Source: a virus (Duplodnaviria > Heunggongvirae > Uroviricota > Caudoviricetes). From it: 12,702 nucleotides of DNA. This document shows, one piece after another, positions 1 to 11,969 of this stretch; the stretch's first letter is position 1; each line of letters begins with the position of its first letter. Location of the stretch: IMG/VR virus record IMGVR_UViG_2563366971_000008; one strand, given 5' to 3'. Under the pieces are notes generated by a model. That model saw only the letters and a program-made list of their open reading frames with translations. It ran no database searches and was not told where the DNA came from. The translations under genes and the position numbers were made by a program.

Positions 1-1698
1 CTATACTTTAAAGAACTTATTTGTCGAAGATAACTCAAGGATCGAGTTACTCATCATCATTTTCATGTCCGCATCTTCTGAAAACTTATCACTTAATATT
101 GACACAATATATTGACCATTTATATTATTTGCTTCAAAAAATATATCTCTAATTTGATTCACATCGACATCTTCAATGCTATCATGAATAACAAAAGTAG
201 GTCTCTTTAATTTAATCTTATCCACAAACTTAATATAAGCCAAATCAAATGCAGTTATTTCACCTTTCTTCTTGCCGCCATTACTGTTTGGTGTAACGCA
301 TGATATATCAAAATTACACTTACCTTTATCAACATCAAAGGAAAGATCAAAAATGTATCTTTCCCCATATATTTCCTTTGTAAGATCACCAAAAAACTCA
401 TTGAAAATCTCGATGTTTTTTTCCAGACCTTGAACTGCTAACTCTATTTCTAAAAGTAATTTCTCTCGACTATCTTCAAGAGATTTTATGAGGGCATTTG
501 TATCATTAATACGCGAAAGATTAGACTCTATGCTAGCAAGATTTTCACGTAATTCAGTAAGCTTATTAAATAATTGATTTATAGACTTTAATGTTTCAGG
601 TTCTTTGATTGTTCTAAATAGGGATGATTCTTGTTCATGAAGATCATTGATTTTTTTATTTACAGTTTCTATTTCTTCTTTTTTCTTTAACAATTCAGAT
701 TCTAAAAAACTGATTTTATTCTTAATAATATCATTATGGAACAATACCATTTCTTCGTAAGTCCTTTTAAGTTCCCCATTAAAATAAATCCCCGCAGAAT
801 TATATATTTCCATTAAATCATTTTCTACAAGTTGTATGATATTATTCTTCAAGGACAAGATCGATTCTTCGATATTTCTTACTCGCATATTTAAGGAGGC
901 ATAGCTCAAAGAATAATCACTGATATTCTTCTGTATTTCTGAAAGCTTTTTTAAGCTTTCATCATGACTATCTTTAAAATCGAAGTTCTTAATATTTCTT
1001 TCCGCCTCTGCAATTTCTTTCTTCAGAGGCTTAATCATTTTTGCTAAAACAGTCTCTCTATTTGGATTCCTGTATGCGGCAAGATATGTCTTTTGTTTTT
1101 TTATCACTTTGTTAAAATCACCTTTTTTCTTTATCAGAGGTAGCCCATTGAACCCAAATAAAAACAAGTATAATAGATCATAGACATCAGGAGTCGTATT
1201 CCCATGTAAGAAATTAAGCGTTTTCTGCATTTTATCATTCGTGTTTCTAATAAATTTATGCGAAACATTCCTCAGTGATGGCTTATCTGTAGTTAACCCA
1301 AACACTGCTTGAGCTATAAATTCAGAATATTGTTTCTTATCTACTTCAACATCATTTAAAAAATATTTTGAATTTTTATCATCAATAGATATTATACGTG
1401 AAATAACTGCCTTTTTATTTTCTACCGTATTGAAATCCAATGAAAATTTCAAAACATTATTATTAATTAACGATACAATTTCAGGTATATCTTTTCCAAA
1501 CTCTGCATCATGATAAATATCATGACCTGATGACATAAATAAATAATCTAAAACACGCGATAATGTGGATTTACCTACACTATTGCCGCTATCTTTGCCT
1601 GATGTTCTTTTATTTACAATTAGATTCAGACCGTCTTTAAACGTCACCTCTCTTACAAGAGAGTCATTTTTTAAAATAATAAGTTTATTGAGCCTCAT
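1..1698 (-). CDS. SMC/ABC-type P-loop ATPase with central coiled coil (565 aa); candidate defence ATPase
   Basis: Complete ORF with ATG at 1698-1696 and stop at 3-1. N-terminus reads like an SMC/RecF head, with Walker A SGNSVGKST around residues 37-45. Residues about 200-440 are K/E/L-rich and heptad-like. C-terminus has a signature-like SNGG and a Walker B-like TFVIHD around residues 501-506. A GGTGGA Shine-Dalgarno sits upstream. Confidence 0.8.
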   Translation of the reverse strand: MRLNKLIILKNDSLVREVTFKDGLNLIVNKRTSGKDSGNSVGKSTLSRVLDYLFMSSGHDIYHDAEFGKDIPEIVSLINNNVLKFSLDFNTVENKKAVISRIISIDDKNSKYFLNDVEVDKKQYSEFIAQAVFGLTTDKPSLRNVSHKFIRNTNDKMQKTLNFLHGNTTPDVYDLLYLFLFGFNGLPLIKKKGDFNKVIKKQKTYLAAYRNPNRETVLAKMIKPLKKEIAEAERNIKNFDFKDSHDESLKKLSEIQKNISDYSLSYASLNMRVRNIEESILSLKNNIIQLVENDLMEIYNSAGIYFNGELKRTYEEMVLFHNDIIKNKISFLESELLKKKEEIETVNKKINDLHEQESSLFRTIKEPETLKSINQLFNKLTELRENLASIESNLSRINDTNALIKSLEDSREKLLLEIELAVQGLEKNIEIFNEFFGDLTKEIYGERYIFDLSFDVDKGKCNFDISCVTPNSNGGKKKGEITAFDLAYIKFVDKIKLKRPTFVIHDSIEDVDVNQIRDIFFEANNINGQYIVSILSDKFSEDADMKMMMSNSILELSSTNKFFKV

Positions 1699-1904
1699 AT
1701 ACTATTCCACCATTTCCATCTAACTCAATTGCGCCGATTATGAAAAGCCAATCTAATTAGTAAAGAAAAAGATCAAACGATAACTCGAAGATAGAATTTA
1801 CTAAATCATACAATCGAGATATTTCAATGACCATTGAATCATTACTTTGAAAGATCCTAAGCACTACACTTCCAATATATACAGGATTTGCTTTTGGATC
1901 CGTA
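1699..1904 (-). promoter_or_regulatory. 206-bp AT-rich spacer inside the cassette with a candidate internal sigma70-like promoter for the ATPase gene
   Basis: On the minus strand, TTTACT, a 17-nt spacer, then ATAATC lies about 30 nt upstream of the ATPase ATG. The gap is unusually long for an operon. This is motif inspection only. Confidence 0.25.
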
Positions 1905-2453
1905 TCAATTGTAATCATTTGGATTCTCCAGCACTATACATTCGATAATAGCATAGCTAACAATCATACGAATGCCATAATCAATATCTTCCTGTAAAAA
2001 CTCTGAATCTAAATTAGAACACGAACTAACTGTTTCTTGAGCAGCTCTAATAACATCATCTATAATATTATCCGAGTTTTTCCTTATGAGTTCAATGTTA
2101 AATGGTTTCTCATAAAGACCATATAATCCCAATGCAGTATTATAATAACCTCTAAACTGTCTTTTCAATTTGACACTACCATTTAAAATTATAGCATCAA
2201 GTGTTTTTATGGATTCATCAACTAGCAGAGCATCTTCTTTATAAAGTTCAGCTACCCATCTGTTTCTTTTAAGATCATTGAATTCTATTTTAACATCAAT
2301 ATTTGATGCTATTCTGTTTAAGTTTTGCTCGCTACCAACTGAATTAGAAATAATTTCAATTAACTTACCAATAACACTGGCTCTTAACATTCTTGGCTGG
2401 TTGTTTATATGCACAGGACCAGTATTATTATTGAAATTAACACCAGAACCCAT
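1905..2453 (-). CDS. hypothetical protein (182 aa), middle gene of the cargo cassette
   Basis: ORF with ATG at 2453-2451, preceded by a GGGGG Shine-Dalgarno formed by the last codons of the upstream gene (stop-TT-ATG coupling). No catalytic motif recognised; few His/Cys. Same strand and AT-rich composition as its neighbours. Confidence 0.7.
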   Translation of the reverse strand: MGSGVNFNNNTGPVHINNQPRMLRASVIGKLIEIISNSVGSEQNLNRIASNIDVKIEFNDLKRNRWVAELYKEDALLVDESIKTLDAIILNGSVKLKRQFRGYYNTALGLYGLYEKPFNIELIRKNSDNIIDDVIRAAQETVSSCSNLDSEFLQEDIDYGIRMIVSYAIIECIVLENPNDYN

Positions 2454-2455
2454 AA

Positions 2456-2728
2456 TTACCCCCGATTATCAATATTCACAGGACCATTATTATCTTGAAA
2501 ATATTGAGAACGCGCTCCTTGATTAATGAAGTTTCTATTAGTTGTAATTTTTACAATCTGGGAATTAAGATCATTTATTGTAATGTTAAGTTGTTTTATC
2601 TCATTATCTTTCTTGGTTACTTGCATAGTCTGATATATTGCTATACATCCAGAGATCACCCCAACAATATATCCAAAGGCACTTACATATTCGTTAGCAA
2701 GTAGTGATGCAATCATTTGGAGCTCCAT
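2456..2728 (-). CDS. small single-pass membrane protein (90 aa; possibly 86 aa from the second ATG at 2716)
   Basis: The ORF carries a hydrophobic stretch VSAFGYIVGVISGCIAIY (about residues 15-32) followed by a charged helical tail. The internal ATG at 2716 has a better Shine-Dalgarno (GGAG, 6-nt spacer) than the first ATG. First gene of the cassette. Confidence 0.6.
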   Translation of the reverse strand: MELQMIASLLANEYVSAFGYIVGVISGCIAIYQTMQVTKKDNEIKQLNITINDLNSQIVKITTNRNFINQGARSQYFQDNNGPVNIDNRG

Positions 2729-2985
2729 TTCAAGCTGAAAGATTTAAAGTCACAACAATCTCATCCTATTAGGGTAGCTAGGATAGCAACTCATGAAGAG
2801 TAAATAAATAGGTATTAATCATTATCGTTTACATGATCTAATTCAACATAGATCCACTCATGGCCTCTATACTTTCTCATAAACACAGTGTTTAGCTATG
2901 TGGGCTTAAGAGGTCTAAATTGATGTACTTACTTTATCAATTGATATAACCCCAAATTATAATCGTTTCATATCATTGACGCGCA

Positions 2986-3004
2986 GTGCTTTCCCCGCCT
3001 CGCC
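2986..3004 (-). other. P2/P4-type cos site (19-nt cohesive-end core)
   Basis: Minus strand reads GGCGAGGCGGGGAAAGCAC, which I recall as the P2/P4 cohesive-end sequence. It lies just downstream of psu, as in P4. Confidence 0.6.
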
Positions 3005-3027
3005 CGCCCGCTTTGTGGGGCGGTTTT
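3004..3027 (+). terminator. GC hairpin plus T-run next to cos
   Basis: CCGCCC, loop GCTTTGTG, GGGCGG, then TTTT. It overlaps the cos-flanking sequence, so the function is uncertain. Confidence 0.3.
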
Positions 3028-3105
3028 AATGCAGTTGTACTGACACGCTCAGACTGCGCCGGGAATGGCGCGGTCTGCAGAAAATGAGGCAGGGAAACGC
3101 ATGCA

Positions 3106-3138
3106 AAGCCATGCACCTTATCGATGCATGGCTTTTTT
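3106..3138 (+). terminator. rho-independent terminator-like hairpin between cos and psu
   Basis: Perfect 10-bp stem AAGCCATGCA / TGCATGGCTT with a 9-nt loop, followed by TTTTTT on the plus strand. An A-run precedes it on the minus strand, so it may act in both directions, including for the psu transcript. Confidence 0.5.
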
Positions 3139-3168
3139 CAGTAAAAACGGGCGGATTTTCGGGGAATT

Positions 3169-3741
3169 TTACACAGACTGACGTGATGCCAGTTGCGCAC
3201 TTTTACGCGAAAAAATCATGTTCTGCGCAGGGGTGAATTTTTCACGGCTGTCATCCACCGAAGCCGCGTCAGGCCTGAATCCGATGGTCGTTAAAATGTC
3301 GCTATCCTGTGCGGAATAATTAATTTTTTCCCCCTTCGCAAGCCAGGACAGAAGGGCTTCACGCAGGGCATCTGTGGCACGCTGTATGGCACAGTTTCGG
3401 GCAATGGCCGTCAGCTCACTGTAGCCCATCAGCTCCGGTGCCAGTGCGGCCGCCAGTGCTGTGCCGTGCTGCTGCATAAAATCATTCAGCCGGTCGCGGA
3501 TGCTGATGTGCTGAACGGCTTCATGCGAACGAATATAACGACCGGCAGCCTGATTCACCTGCCATTTTCTGACTTCGATAATATTGCGTAATTCGTCCAG
3601 GCGACTGACGTTTCTGCCTTCCCCTGACAGAAGCCGCAGATATTCCTGTTCGGCCGCAGCCAGCTCATTTTTGCGTTGCAGCCATGCTGCTTTGTTATTC
3701 TGACAGGTGTCAAAGGCCTGCTGTAAGGCTGTGCTTTCCAT
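3169..3741 (-). CDS. psu: Psu-like polarity suppression / capsid decoration protein (190 aa)
   Basis: 190 aa, the same length as P4 Psu, and last gene of the sid-delta-psu block next to cos. N-terminus MESTALQQAF matches my recollection of P4 Psu. Confidence 0.85.
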   Translation of the reverse strand: MESTALQQAFDTCQNNKAAWLQRKNELAAAEQEYLRLLSGEGRNVSRLDELRNIIEVRKWQVNQAAGRYIRSHEAVQHISIRDRLNDFMQQHGTALAAALAPELMGYSELTAIARNCAIQRATDALREALLSWLAKGEKINYSAQDSDILTTIGFRPDAASVDDSREKFTPAQNMIFSRKSAQLASRQSV

Positions 3742-5864: not shown

Positions 5865-6262
5865 TGATGCCCGCTCTGCAAAAACTCCCTTTTTCTGGCT
5901 TGCCTTTTTCCGGCATTTGCGGATATAGTTTTTCCGCTGCCGCAAAATCGGCAGCCGGGCGTGGAAACCCGAGCAATTCACAGGCGACATATGACGCGCC
6001 ATGCGTCTTTTTTTGTGTCGCAATCAACGCCACAGAGCGCCAGATTATGGTGTGGTGTGTGGTCAGTCGTGCAGATGGCATTCCGTGCATCCTGCCCGCG
6101 TCCGCTCATTATGCCGCAGAGTCAATGGTAGCTCAGGCGGGGCAGCCTCCGGGCTGGCCGGTATCCTGTGAAGCCGGTATTTCCACCCCCGTCTGGGCTA
6201 TCGCCATCGAGCGTGGAAACTCCGGCGATAGCGTTATTTGCTATTCACAGGAGGCTGCCATC

Positions 6263-7658: not shown

Positions 7659-8624
7659 ATGAAAATGAACGTAACCGCCACCGTCAGCCATGCGCTCGGC
7701 CACTGGCCGCGTATCCTCCCGGCGCTGGGGATTCAGGTGCTGAAAAACCGTCATCAGCCCTGTCCGGTCTGTGGCGGGAGTGACCGCTTCCGTTTTGATG
7801 ACAGGGAGGGGCGCGGCACCTGGTACTGCAATCAGTGTGGTGCCGGTGACGGCCTGAAACTGGTTGAAAAGGTGTTTGGTGTCTCCCCGTCCGACGCGGC
7901 CACAAAGGTGGCTGCCGTGACCGGCAGCCTGCCCCCGGCTGACCCGGCAGTGACGGCCGCCGCCGGTGCTGAAACAGACGCTGCCCGGAAGAACGCCGCC
8001 GCACTGGCACAAACCCTGATGGCGAAAACCCGTCCCGGAACCGGTAACGCCTACCTGACCCGCAAGGGCTTTCCCGGCCGGGAATGCCGGATGCTGACCG
8101 GCACACACAGAGCCGGTGGCGTGAGCTGGCGTGCCGGTGACCTTGTGGTGCCACTGTATGACGACAGCGGCGAACTGGTTAACCTTCAGTTAATCAGTGC
8201 TGACGGCCGTAAGCGCACCCTGAAAGGCGGACAGGTCAGGGGCACCTGTCACACCCTTGAAGGACAGAATCAGGCCGGAAAACGTCTGTGGATAGCGGAG
8301 GGATACGCGACCGCACTTACCGTGCATCACCTGACCGGTGAAACGGTGATGGTGGCGCTTTCTTCCGTGAATCTCCTTTCTCTGGCCAGCCTTGCCCGGC
8401 AGAAGCATCCGGCCTGTCAGATTGTCCTTGCTGCTGACCGTGACCTCAGCGGTGACGGCCAGAAAAAAGCCGCCGCAGCCGCAGATGCGTGTGAAGGTGT
8501 GTTGCCCTGCCGCCGGTCTTCGGTGACTGGAATGATGCCTTCACGCAGTACGGCGGGGAAGCCACCCGTAAGGCCATTTATGATGCCATCCGGCCACCGG
8601 CTGAAAGCCCGTTCGACACCATGA
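7659..8624 (+). CDS. alpha: alpha primase-helicase, N-terminal fragment (zinc-binding primase/TOPRIM part), interrupted by a frameshift
   Basis: AAGGAGA Shine-Dalgarno. CPVCGG...CNQCG zinc motif, then EGYATA and AADRD TOPRIM-like motifs. After about residue 280 the translation becomes Arg/Pro/Ser-rich nonsense, while the protein-like sequence continues in another frame. Confidence 0.8.
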   Translation: MKMNVTATVSHALGHWPRILPALGIQVLKNRHQPCPVCGGSDRFRFDDREGRGTWYCNQCGAGDGLKLVEKVFGVSPSDAATKVAAVTGSLPPADPAVTAAAGAETDAARKNAAALAQTLMAKTRPGTGNAYLTRKGFPGRECRMLTGTHRAGGVSWRAGDLVVPLYDDSGELVNLQLISADGRKRTLKGGQVRGTCHTLEGQNQAGKRLWIAEGYATALTVHHLTGETVMVALSSVNLLSLASLARQKHPACQIVLAADRDLSGDGQKKAAAAADACEGVLPCRRSSVTGMMPSRSTAGKPPVRPFMMPSGHRLKARSTP

Positions 8625-9991
8625 GCGAAGCGGAGTTTTCCGCCATGAGTACCAGCGAAAAGGCCATGCGTATCTATGAGCATTACGGCGAGGCGCTCGC
8701 GGTTGATGCCAACGGCCAGCTTCTGTCCCGTTATGAAAATGGTGTCTGGAAGGTGCTGCCACCACAGGACTTTGCCCGGGATGTGGCCGGGCTGTTTCAG
8801 CGGCTGCGCGCGCCGTTCTCCTCCGGGAAGGTGGCCTCCGTGGTGGACACCCTGAAGCTGATTATTCCGCAGCAGGAAGCCCCCTCCCGCCGCCTGATTG
8901 GCTTTCGTAACGGCGTGCTCGACACGCAGAACGGCACGTTCCACCCGCACAGTCCGTCACACTGGATGCGCACCCTGTGCGATGTGGATTTCACCCCACC
9001 GGTGGAAGGGGAAACGCTGGAAACCCACGCCCCCGCGTTCTGGCGCTGGCTTGACCGTGCCGCCGGTGGCCGTGCGGAAAAACGCGACGTGATTCTGGCC
9101 GCACTGTTTATGGTGCTGGCAAACCGCTATGACTGGCAGCTCTTTCTGGAGGTGACCGGTCCCGGCGGCAGCGGCAAAAGTATCATGGCCGAAATAGCCA
9201 CCCTGCTGGCCGGGGAGGATAACGCCACGTCGGCCACCATTGAGACGCTGGAATCCCCGCGTGAACGTGCCGCGTTAACTGGCTTCTCACTGATACGCCT
9301 GCCGGACCAGGAAAAATGGAGCGGCGACGGTGCCGGACTCAAGGCCATCACCGGCGGCGATGCGGTGTCCGTGGACCCGAAATACCGGGATGCGTACTCC
9401 ACGCATATCCCGGCGGTGATTCTGGCCGTGAACAATAACCCGATGCGCTTCACCGACCGCAGCGGCGGCGTGTCACGCCGGCGGGTGATTATTCACTTCC
9501 CGGAACAGATAGCCCCGCAGGAGCGCGACCCGCAGCTTAAGGACAAAATCACCCGCGAGCTGGCGGTCATCGTGCGTCACCTGATGCAGAAGTTCAGCGA
9601 CCCGATGCTCGCCCGGTCACTGCTTCAGTCCCAGCAGAACTCAGACGAGGCACTGAACATCAAACGGGATGCCGACCCGACGTTTGATTTTATCGGCTAT
9701 CTGGAAACCCTGCCGCAGACCAGCGGCATGTATATGGGGAACGCCAGTATCATCCCGCGTAACTACCGTAAATACCTCTATCACGCCTATCTGGCCTACA
9801 TGGAGGCAAACGGCTACCGGAATGTACTCAGTCTGAAAATGTTCGGGCTGGGGCTGCCGGTGATGCTGAAGGAATACGGGCTGAATTACGAGAAGCGCCA
9901 TACCAAACAGGGGATACAGACCAACCTGACGCTGAAAGAGGAAAGCTACGGCGACTGGCTGCCAAAATGTGACGACCCTGCAACAACCTGA
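8495..9991 (+). CDS. alpha: alpha primase-helicase, C-terminal fragment (helicase with Walker A GPGGSGKS, plus C-terminal DNA-binding part)
   Basis: This frame is open from 8495 (first ATG at 8621) and reads VALPPVFGDWNDAFTQYGGEATRKAIYDAIRPP before the listed ORF. The two fragments sum to 777 aa, the length of P4 alpha. Confidence 0.8.
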   Translation, partial: RCVALPPVFGDWNDAFTQYGGEATRKAIYDAIRPPAESPFDTMSEAEFSAMSTSEKAMRIYEHYGEALAVDANGQLLSRYENGVWKVLPPQDFARDVAGLFQRLRAPFSSGKVASVVDTLKLIIPQQEAPSRRLIGFRNGVLDTQNGTFHPHSPSHWMRTLCDVDFTPPVEGETLETHAPAFWRWLDRAAGGRAEKRDVILAALFMVLANRYDWQLFLEVTGPGGSGKSIMAEIATLLAGEDNATSATIETLESPRERAALTGFSLIRLPDQEKWSGDGAGLKAITGGDAVSVDPKYRDAYSTHIPAVILAVNNNPMRFTDRSGGVSRRRVIIHFPEQIAPQERDPQLKDKITRELAVIVRHLMQKFSDPMLARSLLQSQQNSDEALNIKRDADPTFDFIGYLETLPQTSGMYMGNASIIPRNYRKYLYHAYLAYMEANGYRNVLSLKMFGLGLPVMLKEYGLNYEKRHTKQGIQTNLTLKEESYGDWLPKCDDPATT

Positions 9992-10007
9992 CCATCATGA
10001 CTCATCT

Positions 10008-10032
10008 GACCGGCATCTGCCGGTCTTTTTTT
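10008..10032 (+). terminator. rho-independent terminator after alpha
   Basis: GACCGGCA / TGCCGGTC stem followed by TTTTTTT, 17 nt after the alpha stop. Confidence 0.5.
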
Positions 10033-10050
10033 ATCCCTGAATTCCCCGAA

Positions 10051-10142
10051 GGTGAACAATCCACTGTTCACCCTTCACCCATTATTCACCACCTATCACT
10101 CTGAAATAAAAGGAGAAAATCAAAGAGTGAACAGTGTGAACA
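10051..10142. repeat. crr-like iteron cluster (direct and inverted TGTTCACC-related octamers) downstream of alpha
   Basis: GGTGAACA at 10051, TGTTCACC at 10065, and 7/8 matches at 10083, 10127 and 10135. Placement downstream of alpha matches the P4 cis replication region. Confidence 0.55.
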
Positions 10143-10438
10143 GTTCTTTCGAAAAAAAATTTTTTTCCTGTACGATATAGCATCAATCCAAGTAAAAATG
10201 CGCTTTCATTTCACATTAACTTACAGCCATTGGTATACGATTAGGTATACGCACAAAAACTGAATTAAATAAAATCGTTAAAAATCAAAGCGATACAATA
10301 TTTATTCAAACTCCGCCAGCACGGTGTAAGGACTACACCAACAAAAACAGGAAGTTATAAGTCTCAGAAGGACACCGACCAGACGGTGAGGAGACAAAAA
10401 AGGATACGCAACGGAGTCGCGACTCCCTATGACATTAA

Positions 10439-10462
10439 AGCCCGCTGATGCGGGCTTTTTTA
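10439..10462 (+). terminator. rho-independent terminator in the satellite/host junction region
   Basis: AGCCCGC, loop TGAT, GCGGGCT, then TTTTTTATT. It is preceded by a perfect 14-bp palindrome GGAGTCGCGACTCC at 10413-10426. Confidence 0.5.
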
Positions 10463-10892
10463 TTGGTCCTGACCCGCCCTGAATAGAATTCATCCAATTA
10501 CAGTCCAGACATATACAGTATCCCTCAGCTCAGTATCAGCTTCTCGACAAATGGTCACTGTTATTTACCCGTTGCCAGAAAGAGAATAATTTGCCCCCAT
10601 AGCCAGCCTTCCCGGAATCTGTATATTCATTAATATTGTTATCGATTCCATCAAGTAACATAGGTTGGATGCGATTGATCTTACTCACATTAGTCGACAC
10701 GGAACTCAGTAAGTTGAACTCTGGAAAAGCAGTTTAAATAGCATTTAAACAAATGCCACCAGTTCGAAAAAGAGTATAAGCACACTTAATATATTGTTTT
10801 AATTATTCATTTCCTTTCAACCCAATTCTTATCCCTCACATTATTTGTTATTAATTTGTTGTTTTTGATCACAATAAGAAAACAATATGTAA

Positions 10893-11969
<1,077 letters not shown>

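Follow-up and report, generated by a model that had tools for sequence, protein, structure and literature searches.

What does an ATPase with an SMC/Rad50-like head and no nuclease domain of its own act through? The question is raised by the open reading frame (ORF) at positions 1–1698 of a 12,702-nucleotide stretch of tailed-virus DNA (IMG/VR record IMGVR_UViG_2563366971_000008), referred to here at its full length as the window. The original prediction, made from the letters of the sequence, described a 565-residue ATPase whose head is split and which carries a coiled-coil insert. The present analysis favors, with fairly good confidence, the view that the product of the ORF is the LmuB-equivalent sensor in a short-Lamassu (ABC three-component, ABC-3C) module for abortive infection, working with a CTD10 adaptor and a membrane effector whose tail matches that of the adaptor. 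What is new is the arrangement of the effector, in which an adaptor consisting only of a C-terminal domain (CTD) is combined with a detachable membrane protein that is addressed by a co-varying tail.

The ATPase and Its Family

The features of the ATPase referred to in the text are as follows.

1–1698, minus strand: LmuB-type SMC/Rad50-like ABC ATPase of the DUF2326/YydD family, 565 residues (Pfam, PADLOC, AlphaFold2 model, Foldseek)
1564–1590, minus strand: Walker A motif or P-loop, SGNSVGKST, residues 37–45 (column conservation; in the model, between the strand 23–29 and the helix 45–53)
367–1143, minus strand: helical arm, residues 186–444 (DSSP of the AlphaFold2 model; column statistics)
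265–285, minus strand: signature-like SNGGKKK, residues 472–478, at the N terminus of the helix 474–495 (conservation; model position)
172–195, minus strand: Walker B strand and D-loop, FVIHDSIE, residues 502–509 (column conservation)

The ORF is complete, its stop codon lying at positions 1–3, and the places first given for the Walker A motif near the N terminus and for SNGG and FVIHD near the C terminus are upheld by their conservation in 138 full-length relatives. In the Walker A motif, Lys43 is present in all 138 family members, Asn39 in 137, and Gly42 in 136; the motif corresponds to Gx4GK[ST] with the first Gly of the strict pattern replaced by Ser or Thr in the family (Ser in 81 and Thr in 46). 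In the signature-like SNGG (residues 472–475), Gly475 is found in 134/138 and the neighboring Lys477 in 129/138, and in the Walker B segment FVIHD (residues 502–506), Asp506 is found in 135/138 and is followed by Glu509 in 133/138. Position 507, directly after the Walker B Asp, is occupied by Lys (46), Ser (26), Gln (25), Arg (16), or Gly (9) and is Ser in the window ATPase; Glu is not among the commonest residues in this column of the 138 relatives. The position of the ABC His switch, 535, is Leu in 113 and Ile in 24 of the 138 members and is Leu535 in the window. Because the family lacks both the catalytic Glu and the His switch, its ATP hydrolysis is probably slow, as judged from these columns. 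A Walker B of the form hhhhD[Q/S/T/E] has been described for short Lamassu, for which slow hydrolysis was also inferred (PMC12663957); the window ATPase fits this pattern (FVIHD-S), but the Lys and Arg that follow the Asp in other members of the family fall outside the published set.

An AlphaFold2 model built on the alignment of the 138 relatives has a mean predicted local distance difference test score (pLDDT) of 94.1 and a predicted template modeling score of 0.83. It consists of an N-terminal lobe (1–185), long ascending helices (186–305), long descending helices (314–444), and a C-terminal lobe (449–565), in which the signature motif caps the helix 474–495 and Walker B forms the strand 502–506. 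The split SMC/Rad50-like head and the antiparallel coiled coil that had been put forward for checking by AlphaFold are both present in this model, and the long helical insert is also present, although its length of ∼260 residues slightly exceeds the ∼240 first given. The apex of the arm is a short loop (306–313), and no hinge is seen in the arm of the model. The absence of a zinc hook was correctly foreseen: the ATPase contains no CxxC, and the central regions of its relatives contain none either (0/138). At the apex, where Rad50 carries its zinc hook, a nearly invariant Tyr299 and Phe320-His321-Asn322 (window ∼733–804) are found; this apex motif may be a dimerization site independent of the hook or a partner-binding site.

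Comparison of the model with known structures by Foldseek gave as top match the integrative model of Bacillus subtilis YydD-YydB (9a6c, E 4e-19), followed by Smc and Rad50 heads and by the LmuB chains 9hqu, 9hqx, 9uxh, and 9ux7 (E 1e-9 to 6e-9, TM ∼0.5); a search of Protein Data Bank (PDB) chain sequences with the family profile returned coiled-coil noise only. PADLOC assigned residues 11–542 to PDC-M68B (1.4e-45) and the full length to LmuB (2.7e-15). The Pfam match is to the DUF2326 C-terminal domain (1.2e-17), with SMC_N under threshold and AAA_21 at E 9e-5 (23.1 bits against a gathering threshold of 27, N-terminal lobe only); Pfam gave no match to a nuclease, TOPRIM, or HNH domain in the ATPase, as had been claimed. 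NCBIfam matches to Rad50 and to archaeal SMC-related proteins are weak and far under their cut-offs (22 bits against 700 for Rad50). The family is large, with 1129 clusters at 50% identity matching at E ≤ 1e-3 and 200 at E ≤ 1e-30. Nearly all of the 150 clusters listed are full-length proteins of 555–590 residues, and the arrangement of motifs and arm is therefore not a chance one. A relative with 94% identity carries the JGI label “YydD (DUF2326 family).” The ATPase is thus of the LmuB type found in short Lamassu and ABC-3C systems and falls in the DUF2326/YydD family, which is already catalogued; reviews count ABC-3C within the Lamassu superfamily (PMC10586767). Literature searches on PDC-M68, YydD, and MC6 yielded nothing useful. 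This assignment, the missing catalytic Glu and His switch, and the existence of operon partners go beyond the original prediction.

Operon Partners and Two Classes of Loci

Three genes lie upstream of the ATPase gene on the same strand.

1757–1918, minus strand: MC6 middle component (LmuC-like), truncated, 53 residues (TCA to TAA at 1757–1759)
1905–2453, minus strand: CTD10-only LmuA-like protein, 182 residues (profile match to the C-terminal domain of HNH-CTD10 proteins; Pfam CTD10 in relatives)
2456–2728, minus strand: small single-pass membrane protein, candidate effector, 90 residues (86 residues from the RefSeq start at 2716) (hydropathy; locus classes)

RefSeq genomes carry these as four co-directional, abutting or overlapping genes for a hypothetical protein of 86 or 90 residues, a hypothetical protein of 182 residues, MC6, and the DUF2326 ATPase, so that the order is membrane protein, CTD10 protein, MC6, and ATPase, the ATPase gene being last. 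The ATPase is translationally coupled to MC6, to a CTD10-only homologue of LmuA, and to the small membrane protein. The suggestion that an ATPase of this kind acts as a sensor licensing a partner effector is supported, since it fits the upstream MC6 and LmuA-like CTD10 partners.

The profile of the 182-residue family aligns, over residues 21–179, with the C-terminal domain of HNH-CTD10 proteins (probability 98.8, E 6e-17), and 26 of the 51 members of the family, which is constant in length, match Pfam CTD10; a relative matches PADLOC PDC-M68A weakly (E 0.012). In the AlphaFold2 model of the protein (pLDDT 75.9) a disordered N-terminal tail is followed by six helices and by a disordered, invariant C-terminal ENPND. 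Only ∼20 disordered residues precede the CTD, which leaves no fused N-terminal effector domain; this LmuA is accordingly nothing more than a CTD. The invariant C-terminal segment ECIVLENPND (residues 171–180, window 1914–1943), predicted to be disordered past the last helix, has a relaxed form, RCKILEEP, in HNH-CTD10 proteins and may be a docking peptide for the complex of ATPase and MC6.

Loci were parsed from 80 metagenomic loci together with loci fetched earlier, the search being made with a 27-sequence subset of ATPases because the full alignment of 138 sequences was too diverse. Among the parsed loci two mutually exclusive classes are apparent. In the HNH class (37 loci), a 260–290-residue HNH-nuclease-CTD10 fusion is encoded upstream of MC6 and the ATPase, and a small hydrophobic ORF stands in front of it in only 2 of the 30 loci with enough upstream sequence. 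In the CTD-only class (38 loci), the corresponding protein has 180–210 residues and no more than the CTD, whereas a 65–115-residue protein with one strongly hydrophobic N-terminal helix precedes it in nearly all loci with enough upstream sequence. The pairing of the membrane gene with the CTD-only gene holds across 28–90% ATPase identity and on unrelated mobile elements. Since the membrane gene is present in the CTD-only class and nearly absent from the HNH class, it takes the place of the HNH domain.

The membrane protein of the window is made up of one hydrophobic helix at approximately residues 14–36 (window 2621–2689; maximum Kyte-Doolittle value over 19 residues, 1.73 at residue 14), a variable helical linker, and a conserved C-terminal tail. 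A homology search with it returned close relatives only. Bell, Babybell, and HeLo-type pore-forming domains were not detected in it by Pfam at the sequence level.

Matching Tails of the Adaptor and the Membrane Protein

The two tails of the window pair are located as follows.

2397–2450, minus strand: N-terminal tail motif of the CTD10 protein, residues 2–19, GSGVNFNNNTGPVHINNQ (conservation; match to partner)
2459–2509, minus strand: C-terminal tail motif of the membrane protein, residues 74–90, SQYFQDNNGPVNIDNRG (conservation; match to partner)

In each of the two proteins, conservation is highest in these tails. In the N-terminal tail of the CTD10 protein (pLDDT ∼61), Phe7 and Asn10 are invariant and Val5 and Gly12 are at least 90% conserved; in the C-terminal tail of the membrane protein, 15 sequences of 40–90% identity agree completely at 14 of the 17 positions. 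They also resemble one another. The membrane protein of the window ends in SQYFQDNNGPVNIDNRG and the CTD10 protein starts with MGSGVNFNNNTGPVHINNQ, and in other lineages the corresponding pairs are NSQQAMGDITN and NSQQAFGDIVN, NQQSHTGTGNNINAGNDV and NQQIHSGSGDNIHAERDV, SSQYIEKNDGSINI and SSTYVQENKGKVNI, and DRSTYVEQANDITIN and DRSTNIGTAQTVTIN. The matched region is short (11–26 aligned residues) and rich in Asn, Gln, Gly, Ser, and Thr with alternating Val and Ile, and the motif of the window clade contains Gly-Pro.

The likeness was assessed by Smith-Waterman local alignment in 11 non-redundant lineages. The mean score is 41.4 within pairs versus 21.2 between pairs (p ∼2e-4 for this mean on random re-pairing), the protein's own partner ranks top in 8 of the 11 lineages, and 10 of the 11 pairs exceed shuffles that preserve composition (z 2.4–10.6). 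The same codon is used at 53 of 102 identical tail residues, compared with 50.7 expected. Synonymous codons are thus not shared beyond chance, which indicates that the similarity of the tails is kept at the level of the protein and not by gene conversion; the same test rules out recent duplication or gene conversion as the source of the likeness. Programmed frameshifting between the membrane and CTD10 genes, also considered, was rejected on account of a frame offset that is +1 in some lineages and +2 in others.

One natural in-frame fusion of the two proteins was found (P0273, 248 residues, on a 1398-bp ENA metagenome contig), whose junction lies inside the shared motif (...QDNNGPVNIDN/QPRVLRAS..., the slash marking the junction) and corresponds to window positions 2397–2509. 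A 9-nucleotide direct repeat, GGTCCTGTG, occurs in the window at 2477–2485 and 2412–2420, 65 nucleotides apart; a deletion between its copies would fuse the membrane and CTD10 genes in frame.

The Module as Cargo of Mobile Elements

The two flanking features used to place the module are given here.

2980–3059, no strand assigned: segment common to P2-like phages (89–93% identity to P2, pro147, and Yersinia and Salmonella P2-like phages)
3169–3741, minus strand: psu of a P4-like satellite (Pfam Psu, 1.3e-88)

A P4-like satellite on the Escherichia coli chromosome carries the ATPase module as cargo, in its cos-int hotspot. The satellite is marked by psu, an ogr/delta zinc-finger gene, the C4 antisense RNA, isrK, and the alpha primase-helicase gene, and the GC content from position 1 to ∼2900 is ∼30%, compared with ∼55% in the flanks. 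In RefSeq genomes the integrase gene lies directly beyond position 1. The segment 2980–3059 is, from the P4 map, presumably the cos site at the edge of the cargo hotspot, common to P4 and its helper. The cargo is therefore placed in the P4 defense hotspot, which is known from earlier work (PMC9122126). A scan of the intergenic region 2729–3168 gave no convincing minus-strand promoter.

The full cargo is present in 28 of 5426 complete E. coli genomes, and versions with at least 90% identity occur in Salmonella, Klebsiella, Citrobacter, Enterobacter, Cronobacter, and Kosakonia. At 28–50% ATPase identity, the same four-gene order recurs on Oleispira and Methylophilaceae chromosomes, in a lambdoid prophage immunity region, and in a Tn7-like transposon. 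Since the module is found on a satellite, a Tn7-like transposon, and a lambdoid prophage, it is cargo of at least three kinds of mobile element. On the metagenome contigs L009 and L035 it lies directly downstream of Tn7-like TniB and TniQ genes, and at the locus L008 it adjoins a lambdoid cI/cro immunity region.

The remainder of the window was also surveyed. A GC-rich hairpin followed by a run of T lies at 3004–3023, inside the segment shared with P2. Rfam places the P4 immunity RNAs on the plus strand at 5923–6208 (c4-a1b1, 5923–5975; isrK, 5936–6013; C4 antisense RNA, 6121–6208). The host gene glaH (csiD) on the right side of the window is confirmed by RefSeq annotation, and a further ORF on that side we take to be lhgO. 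Between the end of alpha and glaH there is a low-GC stretch (36–40%; 9992–10990), most of which occurs in only 103 of the 5426 genomes. There is no tRNA gene in the window. In E. coli cq9 the same type of satellite adjoins ypjA instead of glaH.

Probable Decay of the Window Copy

The intact MC6 gene encodes 77 residues (1685–1918) and is annotated in RefSeq as “ABC-three component system middle component 6.” The change of TCA to TAA at codon 54 is the sole difference between the window and E. coli cq9 over 401 nucleotides across the gene. The operon is intact in cq9, where it occupies 3808275–3810990 of NZ_CP031546. The intact allele, in cq9 and in relatives, scores 50.1 bits against Pfam MC6 (gathering threshold 27.2), whereas the truncated window allele scores 16 bits. 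None of the six best-matching E. coli strains (N17, N24, N64, N39, N47, and MS20657) carries the MC6 annotation, and the truncated allele appears to be common to these strains. The alpha primase-helicase gene (7659–9991) is also damaged, being split into ORFs at 7659–8624 and 8621–9991 by a deletion of 1 nucleotide near 8499 relative to cq9 (GGTGTTGTTG to GGTGTGTTG), and the satellite is probably replication-defective. In view of the premature stop in MC6 and the frameshift in alpha, the window copy is therefore probably inactive and decaying.

Proposed Mechanism and Alternatives

In characterized Lamassu systems, an LmuB dimer with LmuC sequesters one LmuA through its CTD in a complex that senses double-stranded DNA ends or replication structures, and the released LmuA tetramerizes through the CTD, which activates its N-terminal effector domain (PMC12663957). 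By extension from the solved complexes (PMC12663957), the LmuB dimer and the middle component of the window system would hold one CTD10 protein inactive until phage DNA ends or replication intermediates, together with ATP, bind and bring about its release, ATP serving mainly as a binding switch. Released CTDs would then oligomerize. The later steps are proposed from the present analysis: oligomerization would cluster the N-terminal tails, the clustered tails would engage the matching C-terminal tails of the membrane protein, and the membrane protein would assemble, damage the inner membrane, and so kill the infected cell.

Several observations weigh against this mechanism and should be set beside the evidence of the locus classes and the tails. 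The 90-residue protein matches no curated family above threshold, its Pfam matches to a coiled coil and to DUF6556 both being sub-threshold, and its toxicity and its binding to the CTD10 protein are inferences. That DNA is the trigger is an extrapolation from the Lamassu systems of Vibrio and Salmonella. A “Lamassu missing a known effector” from a P4 hotspot, possibly related to the window system, gave no protection against 28 phages (PMC13586616). Finally, for the copy in the window itself, the likelihood of inactivation and decay described above must be counted.

How the tails would act is a separate matter. We consider it possible, and advance it tentatively, that the N-terminal tail of the adaptor nucleates a prion- or amyloid-like β-structure that templates the C-terminal tail of the membrane protein into a membrane-killing assembly, in which case the “effector-less” clade would not be effector-less. 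A motif at the C terminus of the effector and the N terminus of the adaptor, encoded by adjacent genes, is a hallmark of amyloid signaling pairs (bioRxiv 10.1101/2024.11.07.622273); no paper linking Lamassu with amyloid was found in the searchable literature. A serious rival, to which we would give a somewhat doubtful assent, retains the same Lamassu-type module but makes the tails ordinary docking peptides for one pocket on each LmuB protomer or on MC6, or the halves of a stable 1:1 β-zipper, so that there is no templating and the membrane protein anchors the complex or is gated by it. A homodimeric LmuB does offer two equivalent sites (LmuA1B2C1, PMC12663957), the 11–26 matched residues are fewer than is typical of amyloid signaling motifs, and Gly-Pro within the motif of the window clade points the same way. 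However, docking to a third partner does not itself predict that the motifs should lie at the effector C terminus and the adaptor N terminus on adjacent genes, and the composition of the tails, with its polar residues and alternating Val and Ile, is also unfavorable to it.

The remaining explanations depart further from the proposed module. It is improbable that CTD-only systems are truly effector-less, as has been proposed for the short-Lamassu “Clade O,” to which the window system may belong, with the ATPase complex clamping or excluding invading DNA, or with the locus as a decaying remnant, and with the membrane gene as an unrelated neighbor. The nonsense codon in the window MC6 and the inactivity of the possibly related P4 variant on 28 phages (PMC13586616) would agree with such a system, but nearly all CTD-only loci have the membrane gene, which is essentially absent from the HNH class, the stop and start codons of the operon genes overlap or abut, and the tail motifs co-vary within pairs and are joined in one natural in-frame fusion. 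A housekeeping ATPase of repair or chromosome maintenance (RecN, SbcC/Rad50, or SMC proper) would share its fold class with Smc and Rad50 heads and might account for the weak NCBIfam matches to Rad50 and archaeal SMC-related proteins; nevertheless those scores are far under the curated cut-offs, a hinge, a zinc hook, and an Mre11/SbcD partner are all lacking, the gene is linked to MC6 and CTD10, and a cargo of low GC content inside a P4-like satellite, complete in only 28 of 5426 E. coli genomes, is not what a housekeeping role would lead one to expect, so that we give this explanation hardly any credence. Equally remote is an ATPase of the OLD, Gabija, PARIS, or Septu type (AAA_15/AAA_21) with a TOPRIM or HNH partner, of which the original prediction had already set aside the OLD and Gabija types: the Pfam AAA_21 match that would favor it (E 9e-5) is below the gathering threshold and confined to the N-terminal lobe, there is no TOPRIM or DUF4435 gene in the operon, and neither the arm of 260 residues nor the best matches, which are to LmuB and PDC-M68B, agree with such an assignment.

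Implications

Few bacterial immune systems are as common as Lamassu. If the proposed arrangement is correct, an overlooked membrane protein of 65–115 residues, encoded just upstream, may be the effector in the window clade, addressed by its tail to the CTD adaptor, and the combination of CTD-only protein and membrane protein may explain the “effector-less” Lamassu clade. A fused nuclease effector would then be replaceable by a detachable effector addressed by a motif. Should the tails work by templated β-assembly, an SMC-family sensor would be linked for the first time to amyloid signaling, beyond NLR-like and TPR sensors, and the tails could be exchanged as small address tags in engineering. 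Having lost the catalytic Glu and the His switch throughout the family, these ATPases are probably ATP-gated switches, not motors. With respect to annotation, DUF2326 proteins in the P4 hotspots of E. coli are best described as LmuB-type sensors, the copy in the strain lineage of the window being probably pseudogenized.

Comparison with Known Systems

Rad50/SbcC has been proposed as the ancestor of Lamassu (PMC12663957). The window ATPase resembles it in its split ABC head and antiparallel coiled coil but differs in having no CxxC zinc hook, Mre11/SbcD nuclease, catalytic Glu, or His switch and in its far shorter arm. Within PADLOC, the best match of the ATPase is to PDC-M68B, a component of PDC-M68, which is a candidate system whose mechanism has not been described; PADLOC contains no model for MC6 or for the membrane protein. 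The best structural match, over the full length, is to B. subtilis YydD (9A6C, E 4e-19, TM 0.57), at 17% identity. The partner of YydD, YydB, is of the phosphoesterase type and is not a membrane protein.

The pairs Bab/Agp (E. coli Abi) and BASS/Bell-NLR of amyloid signaling (bioRxiv 10.1101/2024.11.07.622273; 10.1101/2020.01.06.895854) are similar to the window pair in several respects. They are encoded by adjacent genes in prophage or satellite defense hotspots, the small protein of ∼80–110 residues carries a hydrophobic helix at its N terminus and a motif rich in Asn, Gln, and Gly at its C terminus, and the same motif is found at the N terminus of the neighboring product. The partner in the window is, in contrast, a Lamassu CTD10 adaptor and not an NLR or TPR-PIN protein, its motif is shorter, and the Bell or Babybell domain is not detected.

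The ABC-3C systems, reportedly described by Krishnan, Burroughs, Iyer, and Aravind in 2020, share with the module of the window, taken in its intact form, the Pfam markers CTD10, MC6, and DUF2326 in the expected gene order. Their canonical effector component is an effector domain fused to the CTD, as in the HNH-CTD10 proteins of sister loci, whereas the window clade puts the effector function in another gene. Short Lamassu is exemplified by Vibrio cholerae DdmABC or Lamassu Vc-Cap4 (PDB 9NY5, 9NYG, and 9NXX) and by Salmonella LmuACB (9HQU and 9HQX). The window ATPase has the same split ABC head and antiparallel helical arm and a length near the ∼600 residues of these proteins, although its identity to the solved LmuB chains is only 11–17%. 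The N-terminal domains of known LmuA proteins include Cap4, Mrr, Sir2, protease, HNH, lipase, and others; the LmuA-like protein of the window has instead a 20-residue tail, and its system encodes, upstream, a separate single-pass membrane protein with a matching tail.

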